A stretch of DNA of 64,000 bases, from the NCBI GenBank assembly GCA_964291495.2, contig OZ219871.1:1184001-1248000 (forward strand), in the 5' to 3' direction. This DNA comes from Dehalococcoidia bacterium. GTDB lineage: Bacteria > Chloroflexota > Dehalococcoidia > UBA2979. Every line of letters begins with the position of its first letter. The first letter of the stretch is position 1. The translations under genes were made by a program, and so were the position numbers. The notes below the pieces were generated by a model. The model saw only the letters and a program-made list of their open reading frames with translations. It had not been told where the DNA came from and did no database searches. Shown here one piece after another: positions 5,925 to 52,445 of this stretch.

Positions 5925-5932
5925 CCAAGGCC

Positions 5933-6229: not shown

Positions 6230-6370
6230 TGCCCGTCCCTCGTGCCTCAAGCGACAGCATAGCAGAACCTTGTCAGTCCGCCCAGCCGCCGGACGTAGTC
6301 CCGGCGCAACGCACCGCTAGAATGCGCGCGCCGCACGAGACAGCTGCGGCAAGCCGCGGGAGGAACGCGC

Positions 6371-24999: not shown

Positions 25000-25023
25000 A
25001 CCGGAGGGGAGGAGGGGCGCCGT

Positions 25024-25850: not shown

Positions 25851-25962
25851 CTCGCTGCTCCTTGCCGGTCTCGGCCCTCGCGCGGGGCCACCTCGCTGGA
25901 GTCTGCGCCACGCCGGGCCGCAGCGCCATCCGCTATGCTCGCGCGGCGCGAAGGGAGCCGAC

Positions 25963-27105
25963 ATGAAGATCGGCGTCCACCTCAACTTCCAGAACTACGG
26001 CGACTGGGAACGCTACGAGGCGCGGTCGAACGCGCCGCAGGCCGTCACCGACCAGCAGATCTACGAGGAAGACCTGCATCTCGCCTCGCTCATCGAGCCG
26101 CTCGGCTACGACTCCTACTGGACGATCGACCACCACTTCTCGCCCTACATCATGACCGGCGGGGCGATGCAGCACCTGACCTACATGGCCGGGGCGACGG
26201 AGCGGATCGACTTCGGGACGATGGTGATCGTGCTGCCCTGGTACGACCCGGTGATCGTCGCCGAGCAGATCTCGGTGCTCGACAACATGCTGCAGGGGCG
26301 CAAGCTGACGATCGGCCTCGGACGCGGGGCGGCGCAGCGCGAGTTCGACGCCTACCGCATCCCGATGGGCGAGTCGCGCGACCGCTTCATGGAGTCGCTC
26401 GCGATCCTGCGCAAGGCGCTGACGCGCGAGTGGTGGAGCCACGAGGGCGACTTCTACTCGATCCCGGAGACGACGATCCGCCCGCGTCCGCGCAACGGGC
26501 CCGAGATCGTCGAGAACCTGAAGGTCGCCTGGGTCAGCCCTGAGACACTGGAGATCGCGGCCAACGCCGGCCTCGGCGTGCTGATGACGAACCAGAAGAG
26601 CTGGGACGAGTACCGCGAGGAGCTCGGCCAGTTCAACACGATCCGCCGCGACCGCGGCTGGGCGCCCGTGCAGCCCACCACGGTCGCGAACCTCGCCTGT
26701 TTCGAGACGGAGGAGGAGGCCTGGAGCATCATCCTGGAGGCGGTGACGCAGGCGCAGATCAGCAACAACAACCACTACCAGTTCGCGGACAGCTCGATCT
26801 TCAAGGCGGCCACGGGCTACAGCTACTACGAGAACTTCGAGAAGACCTTCAAGCGCAAGACGACCGAGGAGATCGGCGAGTTCAACGCGCGCCCGCAGGC
26901 CTGGGGCACGCCCGAGCAGGTGCTGCAGAAGCTGATCGACATTCGCGACAAGACCAGCGCCGAGGAGATCATCCTCAACGCCCGCTACGGCGGCATGTCC
27001 GCCGAGCACGCCGAGCGCAGCCTGCGGCTCTTCGCCAGGGAGGTGCTGCCGAAGCTGCAGGAGCTCGACGCGCCGCTCTCGCCCGAGGTGGCCGGGCTGG
27101 CGTAG
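25963..27105 (+). CDS. LLM class flavin-dependent oxidoreductase
   Basis: 'WTIDHHF', 'GLGRG' and 'GTPEQV'; start re-set to MKIGVH. Confidence 0.9.
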   Translation: MKIGVHLNFQNYGDWERYEARSNAPQAVTDQQIYEEDLHLASLIEPLGYDSYWTIDHHFSPYIMTGGAMQHLTYMAGATERIDFGTMVIVLPWYDPVIVAEQISVLDNMLQGRKLTIGLGRGAAQREFDAYRIPMGESRDRFMESLAILRKALTREWWSHEGDFYSIPETTIRPRPRNGPEIVENLKVAWVSPETLEIAANAGLGVLMTNQKSWDEYREELGQFNTIRRDRGWAPVQPTTVANLACFETEEEAWSIILEAVTQAQISNNNHYQFADSSIFKAATGYSYYENFEKTFKRKTTEEIGEFNARPQAWGTPEQVLQKLIDIRDKTSAEEIILNARYGGMSAEHAERSLRLFAREVLPKLQELDAPLSPEVAGLA

Positions 27106-29627: not shown

Positions 29628-30077
29628 TCAGCTCGGGCCGTCGGGCTTGTCCTCCTGGCCGGCCCAGACGACGCCCAGCGTGCGATGGGCGAAGCGCCAG
29701 GCGCCCTCGTGGCGCGCGTACTCGTCGCGGTAGTGGATGTACATCACGCGGTCACGCGTGCCCTCCTCGGCGTTCTCGGTGAAGTGGTGGGCGATGCAGT
29801 AAGTCTCGCCGCGGACCACGCCGTCGTCGATCCAGTGGCGCGACTGGCCGACGAGGTGGAAGGTGCGGTCGTAGCGCGCGAGGCCGGACACGCCCTTCGC
29901 GATCGCGTCTCGGCCGTCGTAGCGACCACGCGAGGGGATGAGCACGCCGTCCGGCGTGAACAGCGCGGCGAAGCCCTCGAAGTCTCGCGCGTCGGCGGCG
30001 AAGGCGTAGGCGTGGCCGAGCGCGACCAACTCCTCGCGATCCTCGCGCGTGAGTTCCGCCGGGACGGCGTCGCTCAC
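29628..30077 (-). CDS. NTF2/SnoaL-like protein
   Basis: 'YAFAAD.RD...LFTPDG...YRDEYAR..GAWRF'. Confidence 0.82.
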   Translation of the reverse strand: MSDAVPAELTREDREELVALGHAYAFAADARDFEGFAALFTPDGVLIPSRGRYDGRDAIAKGVSGLARYDRTFHLVGQSRHWIDDGVVRGETYCIAHHFTENAEEGTRDRVMYIHYRDEYARHEGAWRFAHRTLGVVWAGQEDKPDGPS

Positions 30078-31003
30078 GAGGCAGCCGCGCGGAAGGCCTC
30101 GACGATGGCGCTGAACTCCTCCGTGGCCGCCTCGCGCTCCTCGGTGACCCGGAAGCCGCCACGCACGTCGGTCACGCCCGCGGCCACGAGGTCCGGCACG
30201 GCCGCCATCGTCGCCTCGAGATCGATCCCGCCCGCGTCGTCCTGGACGATCTGCAGCCGACCGACGACCCCGAGCTCGGCCGGGTCGCGGCCGAAGCTGG
30301 CGACGGCCTCGCGCATCCGCTCGATGCCGCCCGGGATGTCGGCGGCGTCCGGGCCCCAGGGGATCCAGCCGGAGCCGTAGCGCGCGAGGCGCCGCATCGC
30401 CCTTGGATTGACGGTGCCGCTCACCCAGATCGGGACGCCGCCGGGCTGCACGGGCTTGGGCATCTGGTGGACGTTGCTGAACGTCACGCCCTCGGCGTCG
30501 TAGGCCGCGACGCGGTTGCGCCAGAGCGTCTGGCAGAGCTCGAGCGTGTGGTCGAGCAGCCGCCCGCGACGGTGGTACGGGAGGCCCGCAGCCTGGTACT
30601 CGGCGAGCTGCCAGCCGATGCCGACGCCGATGTCGAGCCGCCCGCCGGAGAGCACATCGATCGTCGCCCCCACCTTGGCGAGGACGAGCGGGCGGCGCAG
30701 CGCGGCAAGCAGGATGTTGGTTCCGAAGCGCACGCGCGAGGTCACCGAGGTGAGGTGCGCGATCACCGTCAGCGGATCGAGCCAGTAGCCGTCGGGGCTC
30801 GTCGGCTGGACGCCGCCGACCTGGCCGCCCAGCTCCGGCAGGGCGTAGTCCTCGAGCTGCTCCCCGAAGGCGACGTGGTCGGAGACCGTGAGCCGGTCGA
30901 CGCCGGCCTCGTCGGCCGCCCGGGCGACGTCGATCAGGTGTTGCCAGCTGCCGGGATCCTCGGGCGTGAACGAGCGGAGACCTGTCGAGAGTTGCGGCTG
31001 CAC
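30074..31003 (-). CDS. LLM class (probably F420-dependent) oxidoreductase
   Basis: 'SDHVAF', 'GVGIGW' and 'PKPVQ'. Confidence 0.88.
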   Translation of the reverse strand: MQPQLSTGLRSFTPEDPGSWQHLIDVARAADEAGVDRLTVSDHVAFGEQLEDYALPELGGQVGGVQPTSPDGYWLDPLTVIAHLTSVTSRVRFGTNILLAALRRPLVLAKVGATIDVLSGGRLDIGVGIGWQLAEYQAAGLPYHRRGRLLDHTLELCQTLWRNRVAAYDAEGVTFSNVHQMPKPVQPGGVPIWVSGTVNPRAMRRLARYGSGWIPWGPDAADIPGGIERMREAVASFGRDPAELGVVGRLQIVQDDAGGIDLEATMAAVPDLVAAGVTDVRGGFRVTEEREAATEEFSAIVEAFRAAAS

Positions 31004-31082
31004 GGCTGTCGCTCCCTTCCGGGCGCGTACGGCCCGATGCGCGGCGTGAAGCGCGGCGATGATAGCGCCTTGGGGCGGCCGG

Positions 31083-32543
31083 TCAGCGTCGCGAGGGCGC
31101 CTCGGCGGCGGCGGCGCGGCCGGCGACGCGGCCGAAGGCGAGTGCGTCGGCGATGTGGAAGCCGCCGTCCTTGCACCAGCTGTAGGTGGAGCTGACGGTG
31201 CCCGCGGCGTAGAGCCCCGGGATCACGCGACCGAACGGGTCGAGCACTTGCGAGCGCTCGTTGCGCCTCGGGCCGCCATTGGTCCAGCCGAGCAGCGGCG
31301 CCGAGGTGAAGCCGTAGTAGGGCGGCTGGTCGATCGGCGCGAGCGTGCGCGGGTGGCGCTGGAACTGGTCGTCGACGCCGGCGGCGCAGGCCGCGTTGTA
31401 GCGCCGCACCGTCTCCTCGAGGACCGCGCCGTCGACGTCGAGCAGCGCCGCCAGCTCGCGAGGCGAATCCGCGCGCTTGATCCAGCCGCGCTCGATCTCG
31501 GCGCTGTTGTCCTCGCTCCACTCGTAGCCCTCGACGAGCATGTTCCAGCCGACGGGGAGCAGCGAGGGCGGCGGCGAAATCGGACCGGCGAGGCGGGTGC
31601 GCTCGTCGAAGATCACGTGCATCGGCGCTGCCGGGTAGAGCTCGTAGCTGCCGTTGATCTTCCCGTGGCCGTGGCCGCCGCGCGGGAACTCGTCGATCAG
31701 CCGCCGGCCGTCCATGCCGGTGAAGATGAAGCCGCGCGCGAAGACGAAGGAGACGTAGAAGCCGCTCTCGAAGCCCTCCGCGCGGAAGCCGAAGGCGGTC
31801 GCCATGTTGTCCATGTGCCAGAGGTCCGCGCCCACCTGCTGCGCCATGCGGATGCCGTCGCCGGTGCCGGCCGGCGACCCCCAGACCGGCGAGTCCGGAA
31901 GCTGCAGGTAGTCGCGCACCATCTGCGGGTTGTTTTCGAAGCCCCCGGTGGCGAGCACCACACCGCCACGGGCGCGGATGCGCAGCGGCGTTCCGCCCTC
32001 GCTCGCCCCGCTCAGCGCCTCGACCCCAACGATGGCGCCCGAGGCGTCGCGCATCAGCTCGCGCCCCGGCGTCTCGAGCAGCACCTCGATCTCGCGCGCG
32101 CGCAGCGCCGCGGTGAGCGTCTCGAAGAGACGCTGCTTCCCCAGCTCGCCGTCGACGCCGATGTACCCGCCGTAGGACTCGCTGCCGGGCAGCTCCGGGA
32201 ACTCGGGGCGGTAGTCGCCGTGCACGGCGACACGCGCGCCGAGGCTCTCGACCCAGGCGGAGTTCTTCGCCGTCTCCCGCGCCCAGACCTCGATCACCTC
32301 CTCGGGGACGGGGAAGTCACCGCAGAGGGCGCGCAGGTAGGTGGCGGCGCCCTCGGGGTCGGTGTTGTCGAACCAGACGCCGCCGGAGACGCGCGTGTTC
32401 CCGCCCTCGCGGCCGGCGGGCATCTTCTCGAGGACGATGACCTCCGCCCCGGCGTCGTGCGCCGCGATGGCGGCGGCACAGCCGGCCGCGCCGAGCCCGA
32501 GCACGACGACGTCCGCCTCGCGATCCCACGCCGCTTCGGTCAT
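31083..32543 (-). CDS. FAD-binding oxidoreductase (fumarate reductase flavoprotein / 3-ketosteroid dehydrogenase-like)
   Basis: 'VVVLGLGAAG', 'GGNTRVSGG', 'LATGGFE' and 'IPGLYAAG'. Confidence 0.85.
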   Translation of the reverse strand: MTEAAWDREADVVVLGLGAAGCAAAIAAHDAGAEVIVLEKMPAGREGGNTRVSGGVWFDNTDPEGAATYLRALCGDFPVPEEVIEVWARETAKNSAWVESLGARVAVHGDYRPEFPELPGSESYGGYIGVDGELGKQRLFETLTAALRAREIEVLLETPGRELMRDASGAIVGVEALSGASEGGTPLRIRARGGVVLATGGFENNPQMVRDYLQLPDSPVWGSPAGTGDGIRMAQQVGADLWHMDNMATAFGFRAEGFESGFYVSFVFARGFIFTGMDGRRLIDEFPRGGHGHGKINGSYELYPAAPMHVIFDERTRLAGPISPPPSLLPVGWNMLVEGYEWSEDNSAEIERGWIKRADSPRELAALLDVDGAVLEETVRRYNAACAAGVDDQFQRHPRTLAPIDQPPYYGFTSAPLLGWTNGGPRRNERSQVLDPFGRVIPGLYAAGTVSSTYSWCKDGGFHIADALAFGRVAGRAAAAEAPSRR

Positions 32544-34846: not shown

Positions 34847-35740
34847 CTACGCCTGGAGCGCGGGGAGGTGCTCCGCTCCGAACTCGGCGAGGAGCTCGGG
34901 GGTGCGGTCGATCTGCCCGGGATCGGCGCGGATGGTCGTGTGCTCCACGCCGGCCTCGCGGAGCCGGTGCATGTCCTCCGCCAGCCGGTCCAGCTCCCCA
35001 GCGACGAGGAAGCCCGCGCCCCCGGCGTGCAGGGTGATCGAGGCCGGATCGCGTCCCGCACCCTCGGCGATCTCGCGGACGCGCTCCCAGTCCACCAGCG
35101 TCTTCTCGAGGGGACTGCGCGGCGCGGCCATCCAGCCGTCGCCGAAGCGCACGGTCCGCTCCATCTGCGGGCGCGTGTCGCCGCCGAACCAGAAGGGGAT
35201 CGGCCCGGCCGGTTGCGGGCGGCAGGTCCAGCCGTCCACCCGGTAGAACTCGCCGTCGAAGTCGACCCAGTCCTGCGACCAGAACGCGCGCAGGAGTTGC
35301 AGCGCCTCGTCCGTCCGCCGCCCGCGGCGGTCGTACGGGAGGTCGAGTACCTCGAACTCCTCCTCGCACCAGCCGACGCCCACGCCGAGGATCAGTCGCC
35401 CGCCACTCAGGTGGTCGAGCGTCGCGAGCACCTTCGCGAGCAGCACCGGTTGCCGCATCGGCAGCACGAGCACCGAGGTGCCGAGCCGGATGCGCTCGGT
35501 CGCCCCGGCCACGAACGTCAGCAGCGAGAGCGCCTCGAGCATGATGTCGGGCGGGTAGATGGTGCTGTTGATGCCGTCCGCCGCATACGGGTAGGGCGAA
35601 CGGAACTCCCGAGGCACCACCACGTGGTCGGCGGCCCACAGCGAGTCGAACCCTGCGGCGTCGGCGGCCCGTGCACAGCGCAGCACGTGCTCCCTCGTGG
35701 CCGTCGGTCCGAACTGCGGGAGCGAGAGTCCAACCTGCAT
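34847..35740 (-). CDS. LLM class (probably F420-dependent) oxidoreductase
   Basis: 'WAADHVVVP' and 'GVGVGWCEEEF'. Confidence 0.9.
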   Translation of the reverse strand: MQVGLSLPQFGPTATREHVLRCARAADAAGFDSLWAADHVVVPREFRSPYPYAADGINSTIYPPDIMLEALSLLTFVAGATERIRLGTSVLVLPMRQPVLLAKVLATLDHLSGGRLILGVGVGWCEEEFEVLDLPYDRRGRRTDEALQLLRAFWSQDWVDFDGEFYRVDGWTCRPQPAGPIPFWFGGDTRPQMERTVRFGDGWMAAPRSPLEKTLVDWERVREIAEGAGRDPASITLHAGGAGFLVAGELDRLAEDMHRLREAGVEHTTIRADPGQIDRTPELLAEFGAEHLPALQA

Positions 35741-35825
35741 GATGCCCCGGGCGCCATGATGCACCGTGCGGCGCGCGGCCTGCTACCCTCGCGGCTGCGC
35801 CGTGCGTGCGACGAAGGGGGTTGCC

Positions 35826-38741: not shown

Positions 38742-39148
38742 TCAAGAACGAACGCCAATACCGGATCACCAGATCGCAGGCCGCCCGCTTCGCGACAACC
38801 CTCGAGCACCTGGAGCAGCACCCAGGCGGGGTCGAGGGGGTGCACCCTCGCATCGCCCAGGCACAACGGGATGCGCTGAAGAGCCAGCTCGAAGACCTTG
38901 AGCGTGAGTTGCGCGAGTACGAATCACTGAGGGCAGGAGAGTTCGATCTCGAAGAGTTGCGCGTCGTCGGCGAACTGGCGACGTTTCTGATCAAGGCACG
39001 CATCGCCTGCGGGCTGAGCCAGAAGGACCTGGCGGAGCGCATGGGACTCAAGCACCAGCAGATCCAGCGCTACGAAGCCACGGACTACGCATCCGCCAGT
39101 CTCGCTCGCATCAAGGAGGTCGCGAGCGCCCTCGGCATGACGAGCTAG
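38738..39148 (+). CDS. XRE-family HTH protein with N-terminal coiled coil
   Basis: 'ARIACGLSQKDLAERMGLKHQQIQRYE'; ATGA overlap with the previous gene. Confidence 0.85.
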   Translation: MIKNERQYRITRSQAARFATTLEHLEQHPGGVEGVHPRIAQAQRDALKSQLEDLERELREYESLRAGEFDLEELRVVGELATFLIKARIACGLSQKDLAERMGLKHQQIQRYEATDYASASLARIKEVASALGMTS

Positions 39149-40020
39149 CCCCGCGCAGCCGCGAGCGAGTAGAGCAGCCCCTCCACATCCCGCGGCGGCA
39201 GCGCCGGGCCGGGGGCGAGCAGGCAGTGGGTGACGCCCGCACCGCCGAGGGCGGAGGCGGTTTCGAGGATGGCGGCGGCGGGCTGCTCGGGGGAGACCGG
39301 GAGCGGGGCGCAGACGTCGATGGCGGCGAAGTCGCGGGCGGCGGCCTCGCAGGCCTCGCGCGCCGCGCCGACCGCCGCGGCCGGGTCCGAGGCGGCGTCG
39401 AGGATCAGGCCGTCGCCGCCGGCGGCGAGGCGGGCGAGGGCGCTCGGGCCCTCGTCGCGGACGTAGATCGGCGGGTGCGGCTTGCGGATCGGCTTCGGGT
39501 AGGCGCCGATGTAGCCGAAGCGGATGTAGGCGCCCTCGAAGGTGCTCGGGTCGTCGCTCTCGCGCCACAGCTCGCGGCAGATCGCCAGCCACTCGTCGGC
39601 CACCTCGGCGCGCGGCTCGTGGTAGTCCTCGACGCCGAGCGCGGCGAACTCGCCGGGCGAGGCCTCCTGCGAGACGCCAAAGAGGAGCCGACCCTTCGCG
39701 ATGCAGTCGAGGGTGCTCACCGCCTTGGCGAGGAAGAGCGGGTTGCGCAGCGGCAGCACGCAGTCGAGCGTCCCGACCTCGATGCGCTCAGTGTTGGCGG
39801 CGATGCCGGTGAGCAGCGAGATTGGCTCCAGCACCTCCTCGCGCCAGGCGTTCGCTCCGCCCTCGCCGCGCAGCGGCGTGGCGAGCCGGTCGGAGGCCCA
39901 GACCGAGTCGAGGCCGAAGCGCTCGGCCGCCTCGGCGAGTCCCACGAGCGCCGAGGCGTCGAGGGCGCGCGCGGGGCCGGCGGCGTTGGGCAACACCAGT
40001 CCGAAGCGCATCGGCGTCAC
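39145..40020 (-). CDS. LLM-fold protein with degenerate cofactor-site motifs
   Basis: LLM pattern retained, but 'WASDR', 'GVSQEA' and 'IYVRDE' replace DH, GxGW and GG. Confidence 0.75.
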   Translation of the reverse strand: MTPMRFGLVLPNAAGPARALDASALVGLAEAAERFGLDSVWASDRLATPLRGEGGANAWREEVLEPISLLTGIAANTERIEVGTLDCVLPLRNPLFLAKAVSTLDCIAKGRLLFGVSQEASPGEFAALGVEDYHEPRAEVADEWLAICRELWRESDDPSTFEGAYIRFGYIGAYPKPIRKPHPPIYVRDEGPSALARLAAGGDGLILDAASDPAAAVGAAREACEAAARDFAAIDVCAPLPVSPEQPAAAILETASALGGAGVTHCLLAPGPALPPRDVEGLLYSLAAARG

Positions 40021-40030
40021 CTCGCTCTGC

Positions 40031-41011
40031 TCACGCGAAGGCCGGGAGGATCTCGTCGGCCATGACCTGGATGCCGCGCATGATCCGCTCGAAGGCGGGC
40101 TCGCGGCCCTCGACGCGAGGCAGCGTCATGAAGTGGCGCACGCCGGCCTTCGCGAACTGGCGCAAGTCGGAGACGATCTCGTCGGGAGTGCCGCTGCAGA
40201 GCTGCCGCTCGCCGTCGCGTCGGCCGTTCAGCTGGAAGCGCATGCCGTGCGCGCCGCTCGCGTTGAGCAGCCAATTCTTCGAGATCTCGATCTCCTCGGG
40301 GTCTCGGCCTTCGGCGAGGCAGATGCGGCGGAACTCGGCGATGCGCTCGGTCAGCTCCTCGATCGTGTCGCCCGTGCAGTCGAAGCCCTGGCCGAGGCGG
40401 ACGGCACGGCGCATGGCGGCGCGGCTGTGGCCCCCGATCACGATCGGCGGGTGCGGCTGCTGCAGCGGCTTGGGGTAGGCGCCGACGTTCTCGAAGTTGA
40501 CGAACTCGCCGTGGAAGCTGGAAGGGCCGCTGCTGGTCCACAGTTCCTTGACCGCGCGCAGGTACTCATTGGTGACGGCGCCGCGCCGGGGGAAGTACCC
40601 GGGCGGCAGGTTGAGCGCCGTGAACTCCTCCTCCATCCAGCCCAGCCCCGCCCCGAGGGCGAGCCGTCCGTTCGAGAGGTGGTCGACCGCCGCCAGCATC
40701 TTGGCCAGCACCACGGGGTGGCGCAGCGGGATGATCAGCACGCCCTGGTTGAGGATCACGTGCTTCGTGCGCACCGCGAGCGCGCTGAGCAGCGTGACCG
40801 GCTCGTAGACCGGGTACTGCCAGCGCGTCGCGCCGCGGCGGTCGGCGTGCGCCTCGTCGTAGCCGATCTGCGCCGGCAGCACGACGTGGTCGCCCATCCA
40901 GACCGAGTGGAAGCCGAGCGCGTCGGCGGCCTCGGCGATCTCGATGCAGCCCTGGACGCCGACGCTCTGACCGAGGTTGCCGACGTTGGAGACGGAGATG
41001 CCGAACTTCAC
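40031..41011 (-). CDS. LLM class (probably F420-dependent) oxidoreductase
   Basis: 'WMGDHVVLP', 'GAGLGWMEEEF' and 'PKPLQQPHPPIVIGG'. Confidence 0.9.
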   Translation of the reverse strand: MKFGISVSNVGNLGQSVGVQGCIEIAEAADALGFHSVWMGDHVVLPAQIGYDEAHADRRGATRWQYPVYEPVTLLSALAVRTKHVILNQGVLIIPLRHPVVLAKMLAAVDHLSNGRLALGAGLGWMEEEFTALNLPPGYFPRRGAVTNEYLRAVKELWTSSGPSSFHGEFVNFENVGAYPKPLQQPHPPIVIGGHSRAAMRRAVRLGQGFDCTGDTIEELTERIAEFRRICLAEGRDPEEIEISKNWLLNASGAHGMRFQLNGRRDGERQLCSGTPDEIVSDLRQFAKAGVRHFMTLPRVEGREPAFERIMRGIQVMADEILPAFA

Positions 41012-41047
41012 GGGCGACTCCTCGAGCGCTGCGTCGCTGCGCGCACC

Positions 41048-42514: not shown

Positions 42515-43723
42515 CTACGAGGCGAGCAGCAGCGGGATGCGGATCTCCTCAGGCCGCAGCCCGGAGTGGTGCGAGGCGTGGCGCAGCAGCTCGCGCGCCC
42601 CGTTCGCGGGGTGGTAGCCCAGCACCTGCGCGCCTCGGGAGATCGCGACGAAGTCGCCGAGGCGCGCGGCCGTGAGCGGGCTCAGCGGCTCTGGTCCGAA
42701 CAGCCGCAGCTCGTCCACCTCCTGCGTCGTCAGCAGCAGGAACGCCTCGCCGAAGCGCTCGCGGAAGCGGGCGGCGAACGTCTCGTGGGCGCCGGGCCGC
42801 ACGCGGAAGTGCAGCACGCGCGAGTCGCCGGCGGGCTCGGCGGCGAGCAGCTCCGGGATCCCATCGTCCTCGCGGATCAGCAGCACCTCGTCCTCGGTCA
42901 CGCCGAGGTGCCCGTGATCGGCGCTCAGCGCGACCACGGCCTGGCCGTGCAGCTCTTTCGCAAGCAGGCCGAACACCTGGTTGATGCCGTGCAGCGCCTG
43001 GGTCGCCTCGGGGCTCCACGGGCCGTGCTCGTGCGCCGCGTGGTCGAGATGCGGGATGTAGAGGTAGACGAAGCTGGGCCCGTCGGCCCCGAGGACGGCC
43101 TTGATGGTCTGCTCCACGCCCTCGGCGAGCGTCTCATAGCCGCTCGCGGGCTCGCCGCCCGTGCCGTAACGCGAGTAGACGCTGCCGGCGATCGCCTGCG
43201 GCACGAGGACCAGCGTGTCGCGCGTCATCCTCGGCGTGAGCGCGGGGAGCGGGAACAGATCCTCGGGCCGCACGCCGAGCTCGGCGAGCGATCGATCGTC
43301 GCGGCGGCGCACGTATGGAAGGACGGTGGCCGGCCCGCCGATCGCCTCGACATGCGTCCACCAGCCGGTGACGGCGTGCCGCGCCGGCCACTCGCCGGTC
43401 ATCAGCGTGGTCAGCGCCACGACCGTGGAGGCGGGGAAGATCGCCCGCAACTCCATCGCGAGGTGCGCGCGCAGCACGTTCGCGCCGTCGCCGCCCTGCT
43501 CGATCATGTCGAGCCCGAGCCCGTCGGCGAGCACGAGCACGATGTGCTCGCGCTGCTCGAGCCGTTCGGCGATGGTTTGCGCGTTCGCGCTTCGCGGGAC
43601 GCCCCGTACGCCGCAGGCGGCGCCGACGGCGCGGGAGAGGTCGAGGAAGTTCGGGACATCGGGGTCGGGGCGAAGCAGCTCGCCTGCCTCGAACGCCGCG
43701 AGCAGTGCATCGACATCGCTCAT
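42515..43723 (-). CDS. Alkaline phosphatase superfamily / nucleotide pyrophosphatase-phosphodiesterase
   Basis: 'LADGLG', 'FPAST', 'LDHAAHEHG', 'SADHG' and 'HHSG'. Confidence 0.85.
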   Translation of the reverse strand: MSDVDALLAAFEAGELLRPDPDVPNFLDLSRAVGAACGVRGVPRSANAQTIAERLEQREHIVLVLADGLGLDMIEQGGDGANVLRAHLAMELRAIFPASTVVALTTLMTGEWPARHAVTGWWTHVEAIGGPATVLPYVRRRDDRSLAELGVRPEDLFPLPALTPRMTRDTLVLVPQAIAGSVYSRYGTGGEPASGYETLAEGVEQTIKAVLGADGPSFVYLYIPHLDHAAHEHGPWSPEATQALHGINQVFGLLAKELHGQAVVALSADHGHLGVTEDEVLLIREDDGIPELLAAEPAGDSRVLHFRVRPGAHETFAARFRERFGEAFLLLTTQEVDELRLFGPEPLSPLTAARLGDFVAISRGAQVLGYHPANGARELLRHASHHSGLRPEEIRIPLLLAS

Positions 43724-43865
43724 CGGCGTCCTCCTGTCACCACCATCATGGCCCGCAGCGCGGAGGTTGAACAGCGGCAGCCGGGCAGGGCGACGGCGCG
43801 CCGCGCTCAAGGCGCGCTGCGGCTATGCTGGCGGTCGCGATCCGGGCAGCGAGGAGGAGGGCGAC

Positions 43866-44930
43866 ATGCTGAAGCTGGCGATCTCGTGCGGCGGCGCGAC
43901 CTACGCGATCCAGGACTTCGATGAGACGGCGATCTACGCCCAGGAGGCGGAGAAGATCGGCATCGACACGATCTGGACCGCCGAGGCCTGGATCCACGAC
44001 GCGATCACGCCGCTCGCCTTCCTCGCGGGCAAGACGGAGCGCGTGCGCCTGGGCACGGGCATCATGCAGGTCGGCGCGCGCACGCCGGCGATGGCCGCAA
44101 TGACGGCGATGACGATGACGCGGCTGACCGGCGGGCGCTTCATCATGGGCTTCGGCACATCCGGCCCGCAGGTGATCGAGGGCTGGCACGGCATCTCCTT
44201 CGACCGCCCGATCGCGCGCACGCGCGAGTACATCGAGGTGGTCCGCCGCGCGATCAGCGGCGAGCCGCTGACCTACGAGGGCGAGTTCTACACGCTGCCG
44301 CTGCCCGGCGGAGACGGCAAGGCGCTGCGCCCGACCGGGGCGGCGACGCCGGACGTGCCGATCTGGATCGCCTCGATCGGCCCTCGCAACCTGGAGCTGA
44401 CCGGCGAGCTGGCGGACGGCTGGCTGGGCACGGTCTTCATCCCGGAGGAAGCGGAGCTGTTCTTCTCCCACATCCGCACCGGCGCCGAGCGGGTCGGCCG
44501 CAGCTTCGACGACATCGAGACGCAGGCGGGGGCAGGCGTCTGGTTCACCGAGGACGACGAGCAGTACAACCAGGCGCTGGAGGCGCTCAGCGTCGGCGTC
44601 GCGTTCAGCCTCGGCGGGATGGGCTCGCGCCGCTACAACTTCTACAACCGCGCCTACGCCCGCCAGGGCTACGCCGACGAGGCGAAGCTGGTGCAGAACC
44701 TCTGGCTCGACGGCAAGCGCGACGAGGCGCGCGCGGCCGTGCCTCGCGAGCTGGCCGGCAAGGTCAATCTCGTCGGCGACGACGCGATGGTGAAGGAGCG
44801 GCTGCGCCTCTACCGCGACATCGGGATGGACATGATCTTCGTCTCGCCGCACGGCGACACGGTCGAGGAGCGCCTCGAGACGCTCGGCCGCGTGATGGAC
44901 CTGACGAACGCCGTCAACGCGGAGGAGTAG
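43866..44930 (+). CDS. LLM class (probably F420-dependent) oxidoreductase
   Basis: 'WTAEAW..DA', 'GTSGPQVIEGWHG' and 'ELADGW'. Confidence 0.9.
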   Translation: MLKLAISCGGATYAIQDFDETAIYAQEAEKIGIDTIWTAEAWIHDAITPLAFLAGKTERVRLGTGIMQVGARTPAMAAMTAMTMTRLTGGRFIMGFGTSGPQVIEGWHGISFDRPIARTREYIEVVRRAISGEPLTYEGEFYTLPLPGGDGKALRPTGAATPDVPIWIASIGPRNLELTGELADGWLGTVFIPEEAELFFSHIRTGAERVGRSFDDIETQAGAGVWFTEDDEQYNQALEALSVGVAFSLGGMGSRRYNFYNRAYARQGYADEAKLVQNLWLDGKRDEARAAVPRELAGKVNLVGDDAMVKERLRLYRDIGMDMIFVSPHGDTVEERLETLGRVMDLTNAVNAEE

Positions 44931-46275: not shown

Positions 46276-46398
46276 GACCGTCCCATGGGCCGCGCCCTCC
46301 GGTTCCCGTTCGAGTTCATGGCCGGCGTCACGCCAATGCTAGCGGAGGGTCCTCGCGCACAACAGGCGCGCCGCTATAGTCCCGCGGGGAGGTGGCGC

Positions 46399-47231
46399 AT
46401 GAGTGGACGGCTCGAAGGCAAGCGGGCGGTAATCACAGGCGCGGCGAACGGCCTCGGCCGCGCCTGCGCGGAGCGCTTCGCCGAGGAAGGCGCGTCGATC
46501 GTCGTCGCCGACCTGCTGGCGGACGGCGCGGAGGAGGTCACCGAGGCGATCCGCGCGGCCGGCGGCTCGGCCGTCGCCGTGCAGGTCGACACACGCCGCG
46601 ACGAAAGCAACGCCGCGCTGGCGAAGAGCGCCGTCGACGCCTTCGGCGGCATCGACATCGTGATCCCGGCCGCCGGGGTGGCGCACCCCGGCTACGTCAC
46701 CAACGACGTCGAGCACAACGCGCAGCACCTGGCGGCCTTCGCCGAGGATCCCCTGGCCCACAGCTTCATCTACCAGCCGCTGGAGATGTGGGACTACGTC
46801 ATGGACGTGAACCTGACCGGCGTGCTGCTCACGCTGCGCCACACGCTGCGACCGATGATCGAGGCCGGCGAGGGCGGCGCCGTCGTCACGATCGCCTCGA
46901 TCCTCGCGAAGCTGCCCGTGGCGCAACCTCGGCCGCCTACCAGGTGGCGAAGGCGGGTGTCTGGATGCTGACCAAGTCGATGGCGCCGGAGCTCGCGAAG
47001 CACGACATCCGCATCAACGCGATCGGGCCCGGCTACTTCGAGACCTCGATGACGGAGATGCTCCGCCAGGACGAGGCGACGGAGCAGGCGGTGCTGGGGA
47101 TGGTGCCGCTGGGCCGCATGGGCACGCCGCGCGAGCTGGCCAACACCGCGCTCTTCCTCGCCAGCGAGGAGTCCTCGTACTTCACGGGTCAGCTGCTGAT
47201 CCCGGACGGCGGCTGGTTCCCGACGGCGTAG
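46399..47231 (+). pseudogene. SDR gene split by a 1-nt frameshift near 46920 (pseudogene or assembly error)
   Basis: 'TGAANGLG...ASILAKLP' is in one frame; 'GATSAAYQVAK...INAIGPG...DGG' is in another. Confidence 0.8.
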
Positions 47232-47786: not shown

Positions 47787-48128
47787 GTGGGCACATACCG
47801 CCTGTACACCGGAAGCGACGGCGAGTCTCACGTCGAGACCATCGACCTGGCGGAGACCCCCGAGTGGACGGCTGGTCTGGACACCACGGCCATCCGCTTC
47901 CGGGAGGACTCCCCGGGGCGGTTCGTGGACTGGCACCCGGCGCCGCGCCGGCAGTTCGTCATCATCCTCTCCGGTCAGCTCGAGATCGGGCTGAGCGACG
48001 GGTCGACGCACGTGTTCGGCCCCGGCGACGCGCGGCTGGTCGAGGACACGACCGGCAAGGGCCACACCACAGCGGTGCACGGCGACGAGCCCTGCGTAAC
48101 GGCCACCATCCCCCTCGCCAACCAGTAG
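47787..48128 (+). CDS. Small cupin-fold protein (paralog 3 of 3)
   Basis: 'RLYTGSDGESHVE...HPAPRRQ...EDTTGKGH'; RBS GGAGG upstream. Confidence 0.78.
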   Translation: MGTYRLYTGSDGESHVETIDLAETPEWTAGLDTTAIRFREDSPGRFVDWHPAPRRQFVIILSGQLEIGLSDGSTHVFGPGDARLVEDTTGKGHTTAVHGDEPCVTATIPLANQ

Positions 48129-48287: not shown

Positions 48288-49322
48288 ATGCGCTATCGCA
48301 CGATCGCGGGCACGGACATCTCGGTCTCTGAGCTCGGCTTCGGCGTCTGGACCGTCGCCGCTGGCTGGTGGGGCGACTACAGCGACGAGCAGGCCGTGAC
48401 GCTGCTGCGGCAGGGCCATGAGCGCGGCATCAACTTCTTCGACACCGCCGACACCTACGGCAACGGCCGTGGCGAAACCATCCTCGCCGAGGCCTTCCCC
48501 GGCGCCGAGCGCGACAAGATCGTGATCGCCACCAAGTTCGGGTACGACTGGGAGTCGCAGATCGGCAAGCGCCGCGAGGGCCACCAGGAGGCCCCGCACT
48601 GCTTCGAGCCGGACTTCCTGCAGCGCGCGCTGGACGGCTCGCTGCGCCGTCTCGGCACCGACCGCATCGACCTCTGGCAGCTGCACAACGTGCGCATGGA
48701 GCACCTCGAGCGCGACGACGTCTGGAGCTTCCTCGACCGCGTGCGCCGCGAGGGCAAGGTGCGCAGCGTCGGCGCCGCGCTCGGCCCGGCGATCGGCTGG
48801 CGCGAGGAGGGGCTGTACGCCCTCGCCGAGCGGCAGGTCGAGGTCGTGCACATGATCTACAACGCGCTCGAACTGGACCCCGGCCGCGAGCTGATCGCGG
48901 CGGCGCGCGCGGCCGGACGCTCGCTGATGGTGCGGGTGCCGCACTCCTCGGGGATGCTCGAGGGCAAGTACACCGTGGACACGGTCTTCGACGAGAACGA
49001 CCACCGCCGCCACCGCCCGCGCGCCTGGCTGATCAACGGCCTCAAGAAGATCGAGCAGCTCGACTTCCTCACCGAGACGACGGGCGGCGTGCTCGGGCAG
49101 GCGGCCCTGCGCTACATCCTCAAGGACCCGGAGATCGTCTGCACGCTGCCCAACATCTACGGCCTCGAGCAGATCGAGGAGTTCGCGGGCGCCTCGGACT
49201 GCGGCGACGTGACTCCCGAGGTCGCCGCGCGCATCGAGGCGCTGTACGACTCCAACTACGGCCTGCCGGTCGAGCAAGAGGCCGCCGTGACGGCGGCGGC
49301 CGGAGGACGGGAATCGCGATGA
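48288..49322 (+). CDS. Aldo/keto reductase
   Basis: 'SELGFGVW', 'FDTADTYG', 'IATKFG' and 'IDLWQLHN'. Confidence 0.92.
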   Translation: MRYRTIAGTDISVSELGFGVWTVAAGWWGDYSDEQAVTLLRQGHERGINFFDTADTYGNGRGETILAEAFPGAERDKIVIATKFGYDWESQIGKRREGHQEAPHCFEPDFLQRALDGSLRRLGTDRIDLWQLHNVRMEHLERDDVWSFLDRVRREGKVRSVGAALGPAIGWREEGLYALAERQVEVVHMIYNALELDPGRELIAAARAAGRSLMVRVPHSSGMLEGKYTVDTVFDENDHRRHRPRAWLINGLKKIEQLDFLTETTGGVLGQAALRYILKDPEIVCTLPNIYGLEQIEEFAGASDCGDVTPEVAARIEALYDSNYGLPVEQEAAVTAAAGGRESR

Positions 49323-50122
49323 CGACGACCGAGGCCCACAGCGGCTCGCACCCGGCGTCCGGCTACCACTCACGGCCGGAGGCGGCGAGCGACGGCGCAC
49401 CGCGCAGCCCGCGCGGGGTGCAGTCGGTGAAGTTCAGCTTCTACCGCGTGCGCGACGAGGTGCGCGCGCTCCCCGCGGCCGAGCGCGAGGCGATCGCCGA
49501 GGGCCTGGAGGAGCTGCTGGAGCGCTCGGCGACCTCGATGCTGACGCGGCTCTACTCGACGGTGGGGATGCGCGCGGACACGGACTTCCTCGTCTGGCAG
49601 GTCCACGACGACCTCGCGCCGATCCAGGACTGGCACGCGCTGCTGCTCGGGTCCGCGGCGGGCGCGGCGCTGGAGCGCCCGCACTCCCTCCTCTCGATGA
49701 CAATGCGCTCGATCTACACCAACCCGCTGCACGAGGGCTCGGGCGCGCGGGACCGGCTGCGCGAGGACGGCGGCGTGAAGGACTACCTCTTCGTCTACCC
49801 GATGGTGAAGACCCGCGCCTGGTACACGCTACCCCGCGACGAGCGGCAGCGGATCATGAACGAGCACATCGCGATCGGCCACCGTTATCACGACATCCAG
49901 ATCAACACGACCTATTCCTACGGCCTCGACGACCAGGAGTTCGTCGTCGCCTTCGAGGGCGACGACCCCGGCGAGTTCCTGGCGCTGGTGCGCGAGCTGC
50001 GCGATTCGGAGTCGTCCTCCTACACGGAGCGCGACACGCCGATGTTCACCTGCCGCCGCATCGACACGCCTCGCGAGCTGACGGCGCACGTCGGCCTGCG
50101 CGCTTCCGGGGGCGCCTCGTGA
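49319..50122 (+). CDS. chdC: Chlorite-dismutase-family heme protein, coproheme decarboxylase (ChdC/HemQ)-like
   Basis: 'FVYPMVK..AWY.L...R..IMNEH...G' and 'YSYGLDDQEFVVAFE'; the distal Arg of true Cld is absent. Confidence 0.8.
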   Translation: MTTTEAHSGSHPASGYHSRPEAASDGAPRSPRGVQSVKFSFYRVRDEVRALPAAEREAIAEGLEELLERSATSMLTRLYSTVGMRADTDFLVWQVHDDLAPIQDWHALLLGSAAGAALERPHSLLSMTMRSIYTNPLHEGSGARDRLREDGGVKDYLFVYPMVKTRAWYTLPRDERQRIMNEHIAIGHRYHDIQINTTYSYGLDDQEFVVAFEGDDPGEFLALVRELRDSESSSYTERDTPMFTCRRIDTPRELTAHVGLRASGGAS

Positions 50123-50421
50123 GCGTGCGGCTCGCAGCGCTGTTCACCGCCGCGCCCGGCGGCGAGCAGCGGCTGCGCGAGGTGCTGGTAGCAGACGCGC
50201 GCTCGACGCAGGACGACGCCGGCGCGGAGCGCTTCGAGCTGTTCGTGAGCGCCGAGAACGACCGCCGCCTGGTGCTGATCGAGCAGTGGCGGACGCAGGA
50301 GGATCTGGACGCGCACAAGACGCACGACCACCGCAACGAGACCCACGCCGCCCTGCACGGCGAAGACATCCTCGAGGATCTCGAAATCTGGATCTGCGAG
50401 CCGAGGGACGGCCCTGCATGA
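50119..50421 (+). CDS. ABM-domain protein (putative quinol monooxygenase) 1
   Basis: 'FELF...LIEQW.TQEDLDAH'; GTGA overlap. Confidence 0.8.
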   Translation: MSVRLAALFTAAPGGEQRLREVLVADARSTQDDAGAERFELFVSAENDRRLVLIEQWRTQEDLDAHKTHDHRNETHAALHGEDILEDLEIWICEPRDGPA

Positions 50422-50714
50422 GCATCAAGCTGACCGTGTCGATCACCGCCAACCCGGAGGGCCGCGACCGGCTGCTTGAGATCCTCCGCGAGGACGTCGC
50501 CGGCAGCCGCGAGGAGCCGGGCAACACCCGCTTCGACCTCTACGTGCAGGACGACGACCCGAACCGCTTCGCGCTGATCGAGGAGTGGCCCAACCAGGAG
50601 GCGTTCAACCATCACATCCAGCAGGACTACCTGCTGAAGCTGCGCGAGGCCTTCGCGGACCCCGCGCTCTGCGCCGGGCGCGATGTCTGGCGGCTGGTGG
50701 AGGACGACGAGTGA
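50418..50714 (+). CDS. ABM-domain protein 2
   Basis: 'SREEPGNTRFDL...FALIEEW...AFNHH'; ATGA overlap. Confidence 0.85.
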   Translation: MSIKLTVSITANPEGRDRLLEILREDVAGSREEPGNTRFDLYVQDDDPNRFALIEEWPNQEAFNHHIQQDYLLKLREAFADPALCAGRDVWRLVEDDE

Positions 50715-51022
50715 GCCTGCGCGCAACGGTCTTCCTCAACACGAACCCGGACGGGGTGGAGGGGGTGCTGGCCCTGCTGCGCGCCTACGCCGAGGCGGGC
50801 CCGAACGAGCCGGGGAACCTCCTCTTGCGGGTCGGCCAGGACATCCTCGATCCCTCGCGGTTCGTGATGTGCGAGGAGTGGGAGACACAGGAGGCGCTGG
50901 ACGCGCACATGGCGCACGACCACACCCGCGCGGTCCTCGCGGCGTTCGGCAACCCGGAGCTGATCACGGGGACCGAGATCTGGCAGAGCTTCGAGGTGGA
51001 ACCCTCCGGAGAGGCGGCATGA
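50711..51022 (+). CDS. ABM-domain protein 3
   Basis: 'NEPGN...DPSRFVMCEEWETQEALDAH'; GTGA overlap. Confidence 0.85.
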   Translation: MSLRATVFLNTNPDGVEGVLALLRAYAEAGPNEPGNLLLRVGQDILDPSRFVMCEEWETQEALDAHMAHDHTRAVLAAFGNPELITGTEIWQSFEVEPSGEAA

Positions 51023-51312
51023 CGGGTCGCGTGACGGTCTTCTTCGAGGCGAACCCGGAGGGGCGGGCGCGGCTGCTCGAGCTGCTGCGCGCGGACGCCG
51101 AGGGCTCGCCCGCCGAGCCGGGCAACGTCTGCTTCCGGGTGAGCCAGGACATCCTCGACCCCGACCGCTTCGTGATCTGCGAGGACTGGGAGAGCCGCGA
51201 GGCGCTCCACGAGCACTTCGAGCAGGACTACGCGAAGGCGGCGAAGGCCGCGTTCACGGATCCTCAGCTGATCACCGGCTTCGACACCTGGTTCGCCGGG
51301 GAGGGCGCATGA
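51019..51312 (+). CDS. ABM-domain protein 4
   Basis: 'AEPGNVCF...DPDRFVICEDWESREALHEH'; ATGA overlap. Confidence 0.85.
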   Translation: MTGRVTVFFEANPEGRARLLELLRADAEGSPAEPGNVCFRVSQDILDPDRFVICEDWESREALHEHFEQDYAKAAKAAFTDPQLITGFDTWFAGEGA

Positions 51313-52445
51313 CCACCGAGGCGGCCGTCCCGGCCACAGTCGACGACCCGACCAACGCCGCCATCCTCGCGGTCTCCGAGGACCGCGTGGCCGGCTTCCA
51401 GCGCGACCCGCTGGGCCGCATCGCCGAGCGCTCCGGCGTGGCGCTGCCGGTCGTCGTCGAGCGCATCCGCGCGATGCTCGACGCGGGGACGATCCGCCGG
51501 GTGCGCCAGACGCTGCTCGCGAACAAGCTGGCGCCCGGCGCGCTCGTCGCCTGGCGGCTACCCGAGGATCGCCTGCACGCGGGCTTCGACTACCTCTTCC
51601 AGCAGGACCCCTTCTCCGGCCACGTCGTGATCCGCAGCGCCGACCCGGCCACGCCGGGGGCCAGCTACCGCCTCTGGACCACGCTCAAGACGCCCGTCGG
51701 CTTCTCGCTGGAGCGGCACTGCGAGCTGCTCTCCGAGCGCATCGGCGCGGAGGCGTTCCGGCTGATGCCGGCAAAGCGTCTCTTCACCCTCGGCGTCGGG
51801 CACGTGCGGCGGCGCGGCCTCGAGCCGGGCGCGCGCAGCGATGAGCCCGCGAGGGTGATCGACACGGAGATCGTGGACCTCGACGAGCAGGACTGGCGCG
51901 TACTGATGGCGCTCAAGCGCGAGTTCGCGCCCGAGGAGATCGGGCCTGACCTGTGGGCGGGCCGCGCTGCTGAAGCCGAACTCACCCTCGAAGCGTTCTT
52001 CGAGGCCGCCGAGGAGCTCGACCGGCGCGGGGTCGTCGGGCGCTTCTCGACGTTCCTCGAGCACGTCAAGCAAGTCGCCGGGGCGGCGCCGGTGACGCGC
52101 TACAACGCGCTGTTCCACTGGGCCGTGCCGCAGGGGCGCGAGCTCGACGCGGGGCGCGAGGTCGGCCGCCACCACGTGATGACGCACGCCTACTGGCGCG
52201 AGGGCGGCCCGGAGTTCCGCAACGTCAACGTGATGGGCGTGGCCCACGGCACCGACAAGGACCTGCTGCTCGCCCACAAGGCGGCGATCGACGAGCACCT
52301 CGCGGAGGCCGGCATCGCGGTGGGCTACACGAGCGTCTTCTGGGGCGGGCGCAGCGAGATCAAGCCCTCGGAGATCGCGCCCGACGCCTACGTCGCGTGG
52401 GCGCGCGAGCAGGGCGTGGACCCGGACGCGCTGCGCGAGGCGTAA
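51309..52445 (+). CDS. Duplicated Lrp/AsnC-like protein resembling a fused siroheme decarboxylase (AhbAB/NirDL)
   Basis: Two wHTH+barrel repeats ('IAERSGV...GTIRRV...LVAW...GHVVIR' and 'GVVGRF...NALFHW.V...THAYWR...MGVAHG'). Confidence 0.65.
   Translation: MTTEAAVPATVDDPTNAAILAVSEDRVAGFQRDPLGRIAERSGVALPVVVERIRAMLDAGTIRRVRQTLLANKLAPGALVAWRLPEDRLHAGFDYLFQQDPFSGHVVIRSADPATPGASYRLWTTLKTPVGFSLERHCELLSERIGAEAFRLMPAKRLFTLGVGHVRRRGLEPGARSDEPARVIDTEIVDLDEQDWRVLMALKREFAPEEIGPDLWAGRAAEAELTLEAFFEAAEELDRRGVVGRFSTFLEHVKQVAGAAPVTRYNALFHWAVPQGRELDAGREVGRHHVMTHAYWREGGPEFRNVNVMGVAHGTDKDLLLAHKAAIDEHLAEAGIAVGYTSVFWGGRSEIKPSEIAPDAYVAWAREQGVDPDALREA

Follow-up and report, generated by a model that had tools for sequence, protein, structure and literature searches.

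The stretch of DNA considered here (64,000 nucleotides, referred to below as the window) belongs to contig OZ219871.1 of a Dehalococcoidia bacterium (phylum Chloroflexota; GenBank assembly GCA_964291495.2), and it contains at 48288-52445 an operon of seven open reading frames (ORFs) on the + strand. These encode, in this order, an aldo-keto reductase (AKR), a protein of the chlorite dismutase (Cld) family, four ABM proteins (ABM1 to ABM4) and a two-module protein of 378 residues that is named G7 in this work (Table 1). As set out below, G7 resembles siroheme decarboxylases and the product of gene 2 resembles coproheme decarboxylases (ChdC), and a role of the operon in the synthesis of heme b is proposed.

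All six gene junctions are stop/start overlaps of four nucleotides, ATGA or GTGA, as an earlier interpretation made from the letters alone (the sequence-only reading) had stated and as inspection of the sequence by eye confirmed. A loose scan of the whole window, in which a coding-like ORF of at least 90 codons was required on either side, gave 12 junctions of this type. Six of the 12 are the consecutive ones of the operon, so the coupling is a real and local feature. The G+C content is around 70% throughout the window, and promoter, terminator and Rfam scans of the operon region gave no match. When compared with the two closest relatives (the loci L001 and L003, described below), all seven genes show purifying selection, with ratios of nonsynonymous to synonymous substitution rates (dN/dS) from 0.07 to 0.54; the values are 0.07-0.19 for the AKR gene, gene 2 and G7 (0.11-0.15 for G7 itself), versus 0.22-0.54 for the ABM genes.

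Table 1. Location of the operon genes, their junctions and other features of the window
Feature	Position	Strand	Match or remark
Gene 1, AKR, 344 aa	48288..49322	+	Pfam PF00248, 6.1e-45
Gene 2, Cld-family protein, 267 aa, predicted ChdC/HemQ of actinobacterial type	49319..50122	+	PF06778 Chlor_dismutase, 5.2e-55
ABM1, 100 aa	50119..50421	+	PF03992, 1.4e-13
ABM2, 98 aa	50418..50714	+	PF03992, 4.1e-15
ABM3, 103 aa	50711..51022	+	PF03992, 3.5e-16
ABM4, 97 aa	51019..51312	+	PF03992, 4.4e-16
G7, 378 aa, two helix-turn-helix (HTH) + ferredoxin-like modules, predicted siroheme decarboxylase	51309..52445	+	PF17805 AsnC_trans_reg2, 1.3e-14, two stretches
Junctions 1-3	ATGA 49319-49322; GTGA 50119-50122; ATGA 50418-50421	+	
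Junctions 4-6	GTGA 50711-50714; ATGA 51019-51022; ATGA 51309-51312	+	
PP-loop (NAD synthase/Asn synthase-like) ORF	within 2498-5454	-	likely LarE/LarB/LarC set
AIR-carboxylase-like domain	end of ORF 3078-4253		likely LarE/LarB/LarC set
Ni_insertion (LarC) protein	4210-5454		E 1.7e-117
Paralogue-rich catabolic genes	6299-7516, 24844-27102, 30077-31222, 34850-35782, 39148-41047, 43179-44927		

G7, a relative of siroheme decarboxylases

A search of the PDB with the single sequence of G7 gave NirDL of Hydrogenobacter (4ch7) as the best match (E 5.4e-9, residues 31-325), and the AhbA and AhbB subunits of Desulfovibrio were found with weaker scores. With a profile built from 87 members of the family, exactly three PDB sequences were retrieved at E<=0.01: NirDL (4.1e-23, spanning positions 28-328 of G7), AhbB (4.1e-8) and AhbA (9.9e-5). 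There were no ordinary Lrp/AsnC regulators among these matches. The AlphaFold2 model calculated from the 87 sequences reached a pLDDT of 92.6 and a pTM of 0.86, and it supersedes an earlier model from 14 sequences (pLDDT 69.1). In Foldseek comparisons the model matched NirDL 4ch7 at E 7e-19 (TM-scores of 0.64 and 0.77, 355 columns), the AhbA and AhbB chains at 4e-5 to 5e-4 and true regulators from 2.5e-4, the best match that is not a decarboxylase being around 14 orders of magnitude weaker than NirDL. Besides, G7 consists of two modules in 378 residues versus the single module of about 150 residues of Lrp/AsnC regulators. These results support the view that G7 is an AhbAB/NirDL-like protein, as the sequence-only reading had proposed for this fused gene, and not an ordinary Lrp regulator, a possibility raised there that neither the profile nor the predicted structure bears out.

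The conservation of motifs is consistent with this assignment. An HXYXR motif is reported to be conserved in both AhbA and AhbB; in AhbB, His98, Tyr100 and Arg102 are proposed to be catalytic and the R102A variant is inactive, and in AhbA the iron ligand is His115 and a propionate is held by Arg119 (Palmer 2014, PMC4145669). The second half of G7 matches the NCBIfam model of AhbB and the first half that of AhbA. The stretch H293-A-Y295-W-R297 in the second half aligns with the HXYXR motifs of AhbB and NirDL, and the first half carries H105-V-V107-I-R109. The residues His105, Val107, Arg109, His293, Tyr295 and Arg297 are invariant in the 81 sequences compared, which come from at least seven phyla.

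Two stretches conserved at 90% or more in the alignment of 87 sequences are specific to the G7 family, namely residues 162-174 and 344-355 (window 51792-51830 and 52338-52373). The former begins in the linker between the modules with G-V-G-H-x-R-R (residues 162-168) followed by P-G, and the latter reads F-W-G-G-R-S-E-I-K-P-S-E near the C-terminus. Both are rich in Arg and His and have no counterpart in the NirDL alignment; they are candidate contacts with the carboxylates of a tetrapyrrole.

Gene 2, a putative coproheme decarboxylase

The best solved matches of gene 2 are coproheme decarboxylases (9mhq at 7.6e-26, then the enzymes of C. diphtheriae), and chlorite dismutases follow from 9e-15. 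The Tyr160 and His183 residues of gene 2 align with the Tyr and His of 9mhq. In the ChdC from C. diphtheriae, Y135 is reported as the catalytic residue and H118 as a distal base specific to actinobacterial ChdCs, and propionate and His contacts are formed by R139, W143, N115, T172, T205 and R208 (PMC9953210). Asn135, His138, Tyr160, Lys164, Trp168, His183, Thr197, Thr244 and Arg247 of gene 2 align with functional residues of this enzyme, Lys164 standing in place of R139; the mapping follows the alignment with 9mhq and then spacing, and the correspondence between the 9mhq and C. diphtheriae numbering is likewise taken from spacing.

In the Clds, on the other hand, Ile is reported at the site of ChdC's catalytic Tyr and a distal Arg is needed (PMC7611857). 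Gene 2 has Tyr where the Clds have Ile, and its residues 195-197 are Ile-Asn-Thr, with no Arg. The distal Arg position, which we take to lie 13 residues after the proximal His, falls on Asn196, with Ile195 as its neighbour. Thus, the absence of Arg that had been noticed from the sequence holds, and the residue at that place is presumably Asn rather than the Ile named there. The YPMVK motif and the proximal E-H pair of gene 2 are present as described, and so are the GHVVIR and THAYWR motifs of G7. Taken together, residues and best matches support the likeness of this protein to coproheme decarboxylases rather than to chlorite dismutases, in agreement with what had been proposed for gene 2. A peculiarity of this protein is that five residues are inserted in the segment leading from the distal His to the catalytic Tyr.

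Among the best 120 relatives of gene 2 (146-468 aa), all eight that carry an organism name are from Dehalococcoidia or Chloroflexota, and they are called 'chlorite dismutase (family protein)' in public records. The longest contigs of several ChdC and G7 clusters have identical sizes (2294316, 877181, 2652530 and 3114823, for example), which suggests indirectly that ChdC and G7 share contigs even where they are not adjacent.

AKR and ABM proteins

Among solved structures, the AKR is closest to IolS, YhdN and MtmW. Its start at 48288 is supported by the M-R/K-Y-R beginning of eight out of eight orthologues, in which Tyr57, Lys83 and His133 are also invariant (Asp52 is kept in seven of the eight). 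The gene, whose dN/dS is 0.07-0.08 against L001 and L003, is an older and conserved partner of G7; it is tied to tetrapyrroles by position only.

All four ABM proteins score above the Pfam ABM cut-off, and they are paralogues of which ABM3 and ABM4 form the closest pair (53-58% identity when each is compared with the L001 and L003 copies of the other). ABM1 shares 26-34% identity with the other three. The identity of ABM1 to its counterparts is 90-91% in L001 and L003 and 83% in L002 (dN/dS 0.22-0.24), and the gene is absent from the related locus L006. ABM2 is 90-91% identical in L001-L003 (dN/dS 0.29-0.49). ABM3 is 77-80% identical in L001 and L003 (dN/dS 0.23-0.31, dS 0.44-0.50) and ABM4 65-67% (dN/dS 0.45-0.54), and in L002 there is one ABM3/4-like gene only. 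ABM3 and ABM4 have changed at a much higher rate than the genes around them, with amino-acid identities of 65-80% against 94-97% and dS of 0.40-0.50 against 0.15-0.24, which hints at recombination among the paralogues. In the PDB, ABM4 is closest to ABM proteins that are themselves uncharacterised; its match to HmoB, a relative of heme oxygenases, is at just E 0.0066. Heme degradation of the IsdG type by the ABM proteins was considered and set aside, because these proteins are generic in their PDB matches and absent from the ancestral operon.

Gene neighbourhoods in relatives

The G7 family was searched in a scan of one genome per species and confirmed in at least 593 stretches (593 of 600 examined). 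The best 80 of these, with flanks of up to 8 kb, were taken as loci for comparison and searched with the seven window proteins by tblastn; Pfam scans covered 127 immediate same-strand neighbour ORFs and 40 ORFs of six whole loci. The full cluster is present only in L001 and L003, with four ABM genes, and in L002, with three; in these loci the DNA is about 92% identical to the window.

The Chloroflexota locus L006 has AKR, ChdC and G7 without any ABM gene, and ABM genes were found in just three of the 80 loci. This supports the conclusion, which the sequence-only reading had offered as its alternative, that the ABM block was inserted into an AKR-ChdC-G7 operon of older date; the tandem insertion is recent and specific to the lineage. 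In L006 the three genes lie on one strand and with overlapping ends in the series SDR, AKR, ChdC, G7, SirC-like precorrin-2 dehydrogenase/chelatase, HemA, HemC, CobA/HemD fusion, HemB and HemL, and no hemE, hemY or hemH was detected in this operon by the Pfam scan. Because the trio is joined there to a sirC-hemACDBL operon, the connection with tetrapyrroles that had been suspected from the window is stronger than could be known from the window itself.

Two further loci show similar arrangements: HemA-AKR-G7-SirC-CbiC/CbiX-CbiD in L017 and HemA-AKR-G7 in L058. In a metagenome-assembled genome (MAG) of Phycisphaeraceae (L005, 6000-9134) the order is AKR, a Rieske [2Fe-2S] protein of 113 aa and G7, with a divergent Rrf2-family regulator beside them and integrase and AbiV genes next. 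In total, this AKR subfamily adjoins G7 in seven of the 80 loci (L001-L003, L005, L006, L017 and L058), a SirC-like gene does so in two and hemA in three. When the flanking ORFs were clustered, the commonest neighbour of G7 was a protein with a histidine-kinase ATPase domain (13 loci), and a HemN/HemW-like radical SAM gene was found upstream in two Verrucomicrobiales loci.

Distribution and phylogeny of the G7 family

In a set of 5.8 billion proteins, all of the 8000 candidates scored were G7 relatives, and the best 120 have identities of 63-95%. A library clustered at 50% identity gave 823 G7 matches at E<=1e-3, mostly fragments, with a handful of full-length divergent proteins. The names that the best 120, where named, carry in public records are 'Lrp/AsnC family transcriptional regulator', 'DNA-binding Lrp family transcriptional regulator' and 'hypothetical protein'.

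According to the record titles, the 80 loci belong to Verrucomicrobiota (30), Chloroflexota (15), Planctomycetota of the Phycisphaerae (15), Gemmatimonadota (5), Acidobacteriota (4), Armatimonadota (3), Vulcanimicrobiota (3) and Actinomycetota (1); three bear Pseudomonadota labels that look wrong and one is unlabelled. The identity to G7 of the window is 94-95% in the three closest relatives (L001-L003) and 64-71% in the other loci, across at least seven phyla. In a quick tree, with SH-aLRT as the only measure of support, the sequences group largely by phylum, which fits an old and mostly vertically inherited housekeeping gene, and the 15 Chloroflexota loci fall together with the window (support 86). 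Unlikely organism names (Klebsiella pneumoniae, Klebsiella sp., Janthinobacterium sp. and Akkermansia muciniphila) were seen on the MAG records L040, L048, L007, L031, L061, L062 and L078. These labels are probably wrong, since the tree places the G7 genes of these records among those of Verrucomicrobiota or Vulcanimicrobiota.

Fusions of G7 were found with a TrpD-like protein of glycosyltransferase family 3 (three clusters) and with a CCA-adding/HD enzyme (one Akkermansiaceae cluster of 386 member sequences), represented by the proteins P0391-P0394; the same fusion search returned no tetrapyrrole enzyme as partner. A TrpD-like gene also lies directly downstream of G7 in two Dehalococcoidia loci (L041, 6126-7217; L052, 6696-7772). 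In the latter, which is a MAG, the G7 homologue (5519-6643) has a stop at 6629-6631 inside the tblastn match, as a result of either a slight truncation or a sequencing error.

Proposed function and alternative explanations

The order and translational coupling of the genes, the families and folds of their products, the conserved motifs and the surroundings of the genes in relatives are shown here, whereas all the substrates and activities named below are inferred. The operon would encode late steps of heme b synthesis in a bacterium of the class Dehalococcoidia. G7, as a single-chain protein of the NirDL type, would most likely convert siroheme into 12,18-didecarboxysiroheme, its AhbB-like second half supplying the catalytic His293, Tyr295 and Arg297 and its AhbA-like first half supplying His105 as iron ligand together with Arg109. 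Gene 2 would be an H2O2-dependent coproheme decarboxylase that produces heme b from Fe-coproporphyrin III. Both proteins together would constitute a bacterial version of the hybrid route of Haloferax volcanii, with a siroheme branch and an aerobic ChdC finish. The removal of the C2 and C7 acetates, which is carried out by AhbC in known systems, is not encoded in the operon and is presumed to be encoded elsewhere in the genome. The ABM proteins are possibly heme acceptors or handlers, by analogy with the heme-binding ABM domain of haloarchaeal PitA; they cannot be an obligate part of the middle step, because the other 77 loci lack ABM genes beside G7. A bacterial siroheme-to-heme module finished by ChdC, whose acetate-removal step is encoded elsewhere, is the explanation that we favour, with confidence that is about evenly balanced.

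Several observations weigh against this explanation. In all 81 sequences of the family Val107 replaces the Tyr of the first-half HXYXR motif, although His105 and Arg109 are kept. G7 stays below the NCBIfam cut-offs of both AhbB (58.6 bits, cut-off 125) and AhbA (38.3 bits, cut-off 140), and its identity to NirDL is just 17% over the structural alignment. The membership of gene 2 among the ChdCs is affected in the same way, with 120 bits against the HemQ_actino model (cut-off 235) and 74 bits against PRK12276 (cut-off 253). There is no ChdC, AKR or ABM gene beside G7 in 73 of the 80 loci, genes of the sirC or hemA type were found in three only (L006, L017 and L058), and the upstream gene depends on the lineage: flavin reductase in five Phycisphaerae, DUF4202 in five Verrucomicrobiota and a molybdopterin-domain protein in six Dehalococcoidia. 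With regard to the middle step, no Radical_SAM domain was detected among the 68 window ORFs scanned, and no other tetrapyrrole genes among the remaining 61. A screen for CxxxCxxC in ORFs of at least 200 aa, made in the 80 loci and the window, gave 20 matches; the 11 that were scanned (ten and that of L067) are RlmN-, DUF3641-, MiaB- or HemN/HemW-like and none is of AhbC, AhbD or NirJ type, and the other nine look like off-frame ORFs. In this way, no gene of AhbC or AhbD type was found in the window or in any of the 80 loci within their flanks. Finally, Gemmatimonadota make protoporphyrin, so G7 may do something else in that phylum.

The presence of ChdC can be explained without G7 or a siroheme route, since the coproporphyrin-dependent (CPD) pathway is reported to be encoded in 55% of Chloroflexi genomes (PMC10740692). 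Gene 2 would then be the ordinary last enzyme of that pathway, and the genome would carry hemE, cgoX and cpfC at other places; G7 would have some other housekeeping function, and the AKR and ABM proteins would be unrelated redox or detoxification enzymes. In agreement with this, G7 is not beside ChdC in 76 of the 80 loci and its neighbours are lineage-specific, its fusion partners are TrpD-like and CCA-adding enzymes and none acts on tetrapyrroles, and the AKR and ABM relatives in the PDB are generic. Nevertheless, the six overlaps bind all seven genes of the operon, the L006 genes for ChdC and G7 are continued by sirC-hemA-hemC-cobA/hemD-hemB-hemL in an operon devoid of hemE, hemY and hemH, three separate lineages of Chloroflexota have G7 next to sirC or hemA, and the catalytic motif of the siroheme decarboxylases is invariant in the family, so that we consider this explanation somewhat unlikely. 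A role in heme d1 synthesis was set aside, as there are no nir genes in the window. It has also to be considered that G7 could be a sensor, regulator or chaperone that binds tetrapyrroles (controlling hem expression or glutamyl-tRNA reductase, or delivering siroheme or heme) instead of a decarboxylase. The fold is common to the Lrp/AsnC regulators and both HTH modules are retained, many phyla have G7 with no heme genes close by, and it is found beside hemA in L017 and L058. However, transcription factors rarely keep 64-71% identity over seven or more phyla, the AhbB catalytic His, Tyr and Arg (including the Arg whose loss inactivates AhbA/B) do not vary in the 81 sequences, and the profile retrieved no DNA-binding Lrp protein at its threshold, which makes such a role clearly improbable.

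A different question is whether the acetates could be removed without AhbC. In an oxygen-tolerant route of this kind the AKR would remove the C2 and C7 acetates of didecarboxysiroheme and thereby yield coproheme for ChdC, ABM oxygenases being also involved in the window lineage. The sequence-only reading had considered the AKR and ABM proteins for this middle step. The lack of AhbC-type genes in the window, in the hem operon of L006 and in the other 79 flanks would fit such a route, as would the seven loci with the AKR beside G7 (including the AKR-Rieske-G7 order of Phycisphaeraceae), the strong constraint on the AKR and the aerobic-type character of these lineages, which use an O2/H2O2-linked ChdC. 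But little can be concluded about a genome from what flanks of up to 8 kb lack, the chemistry of AKRs (carbonyl reduction with NAD(P)H) is a poor apparent fit to acetate removal, ABM genes are missing from 77 of the 80 loci and the AKR is not beside G7 in 73, and the proposal seems very doubtful to us. We give equally little credence to a broader idea, in which the G7 family would mark a widespread and unrecognised siroheme-based heme route among aerobic bacteria from seven phyla or more (Chloroflexota, Verrucomicrobiota, Planctomycetota, Gemmatimonadota, Acidobacteriota, Armatimonadota and Vulcanimicrobiota), AhbC being replaced by oxygen-tolerant enzymes such as the AKR and ChdC performing the last step, or in which G7 would make didecarboxysiroheme for another cofactor.

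Comparison with known systems

The favoured siroheme-to-heme module has precedents in the haloarchaea. The genome of H. volcanii is reported to contain nirDL/nirGH, ahbC and ahbD; the loss of PitA, which is a ChdC-ABM fusion, cripples aerobic growth and the loss of AhbD anaerobic growth, heme rescues both, and the bound heme b of PitA (0.83 per subunit) resides in its ABM part (PMC5746218). Besides, chdC is reported in nearly all haloarchaea, whose AhbA and AhbB are two-domain proteins (PMC8305020), and all three fold families of the operon have been assigned to a heme-binding ferredoxin-like barrel superfamily (PMC4835899). Owing to these precedents, both a siroheme route finished by ChdC and the association of ChdC with ABM units are already known, and the description of the operon as a candidate for an undescribed pathway was overstated.

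The operon of the window resembles the haloarchaeal hybrid route in that two-module homologues of siroheme decarboxylases occur together with a last enzyme of the ChdC type, and it resembles PitA in that a Cld-family domain is physically associated with ABM-fold units. The differences are several. The host is bacterial, and ChdC and the ABM proteins are encoded by separate genes, each with its own stop codon, instead of being fused through a His-rich linker as in PitA. In that protein the ABM part has about 200 aa and binds heme b, whereas the operon has four ABM units of about 100 aa. The haloarchaea possess two two-domain proteins, whereas the window encodes the single fused G7, from a distant clade below the NCBIfam AhbA and AhbB cut-offs. 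The operon also has a conserved AKR partner, and no ahbC was seen nearby.

NirDL from Hydrogenobacter thermophilus (PDB 4ch7/4czc), which takes part in heme d1 synthesis, is likewise a single chain of two HTH and ferredoxin-like modules; it is the best match of G7 by sequence, profile and fold, and the His-x-Tyr-x-Arg motifs of the second half are aligned. Unlike NirDL, to which it has so low an identity, G7 shows Val for Tyr in the first half and invariant loops of its own (162-168 and 346-355), and it is not accompanied by nir genes in the window. The halves of G7 match the models of the AhbA and AhbB subunits that form the Desulfovibrio heterodimer (PDB 4czd/4un1), and the residues with roles in that system are kept, but G7 is fused, its context is of aerobic type and neither ahbC nor ahbD is its neighbour. 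Gene 2 shares with the ChdC of C. diphtheriae (PDB 6xub, 7q4f; 9mhq-type) the catalytic Tyr, the distal and proximal His and the Arg/Lys-Trp propionate contacts, and it differs from it in the score of 120 bits against a cut-off of 235, in the five-residue insertion and in the public naming of its relatives as chlorite dismutase.

What is new here is the bacterial host, the distant and widespread clade of single-chain G7 proteins annotated as regulators, the conserved AKR partner, the tandem array of ABM genes and the lack of an AhbC gene in the neighbourhoods examined. Searches of titles and abstracts, with subscription journals mostly outside their reach, gave nothing on this operon, and among the papers since 2017 listed for 'didecarboxysiroheme' there was nothing on an AhbC substitute or on a bacterial G7-like family. 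The Tepidiforma paper makes no mention of heme, siroheme, tetrapyrrole, cobalamin or cytochrome. A 2026 review lists AhbA-B, AhbC and AhbD as the four enzymes of the siroheme-dependent heme pathway (PMC13564367). Current accounts place that pathway in archaea and sulfate reducers; the present analysis adds a large family of bacterial single-chain proteins resembling siroheme decarboxylases, labelled publicly as Lrp/AsnC regulators, which in Chloroflexota is wired into a hem operon together with ChdC. If G7 were active, automatic annotation would be mis-assigning heme synthesis in many uncultured aerobic bacteria. Moreover, the AKR neighbour and the lack of AhbC in the neighbourhoods examined provide a candidate set for an oxygen-tolerant replacement of this enzyme.

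Other features of the window

Downstream of the operon lie the pstSCAB-phoU genes, and upstream of it there are genes for a cupin, a frameshifted SDR, an MFS transporter and a luciferase-like monooxygenase. The cupin gene (47790-48128) is 160 bp upstream of the AKR gene and may belong to the same transcription unit as the operon; it is found in the same place in L001-L003, at 86-90% identity, and is absent from L006. A frameshift near 46920 interrupts the SDR gene (46285-47231): of the L003 orthologue, which is intact, residues 1-174 are matched in frame 1 of the window and residues 175-277 in frame 3. Either the gene is a pseudogene or the assembly is in error here.

The genes at 2498-5454 probably form a LarE/LarB/LarC set for the nickel-pincer cofactor (Table 1). 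The window also contains seven luciferase-like monooxygenase ORFs, three family-III CoA-transferase domains (in two ORFs), four enoyl-CoA hydratases, two acyl-CoA dehydrogenases and two NIPSNAP proteins. This paralogue-rich catabolic repertoire presumably resembles that of SAR202-type Chloroflexota.

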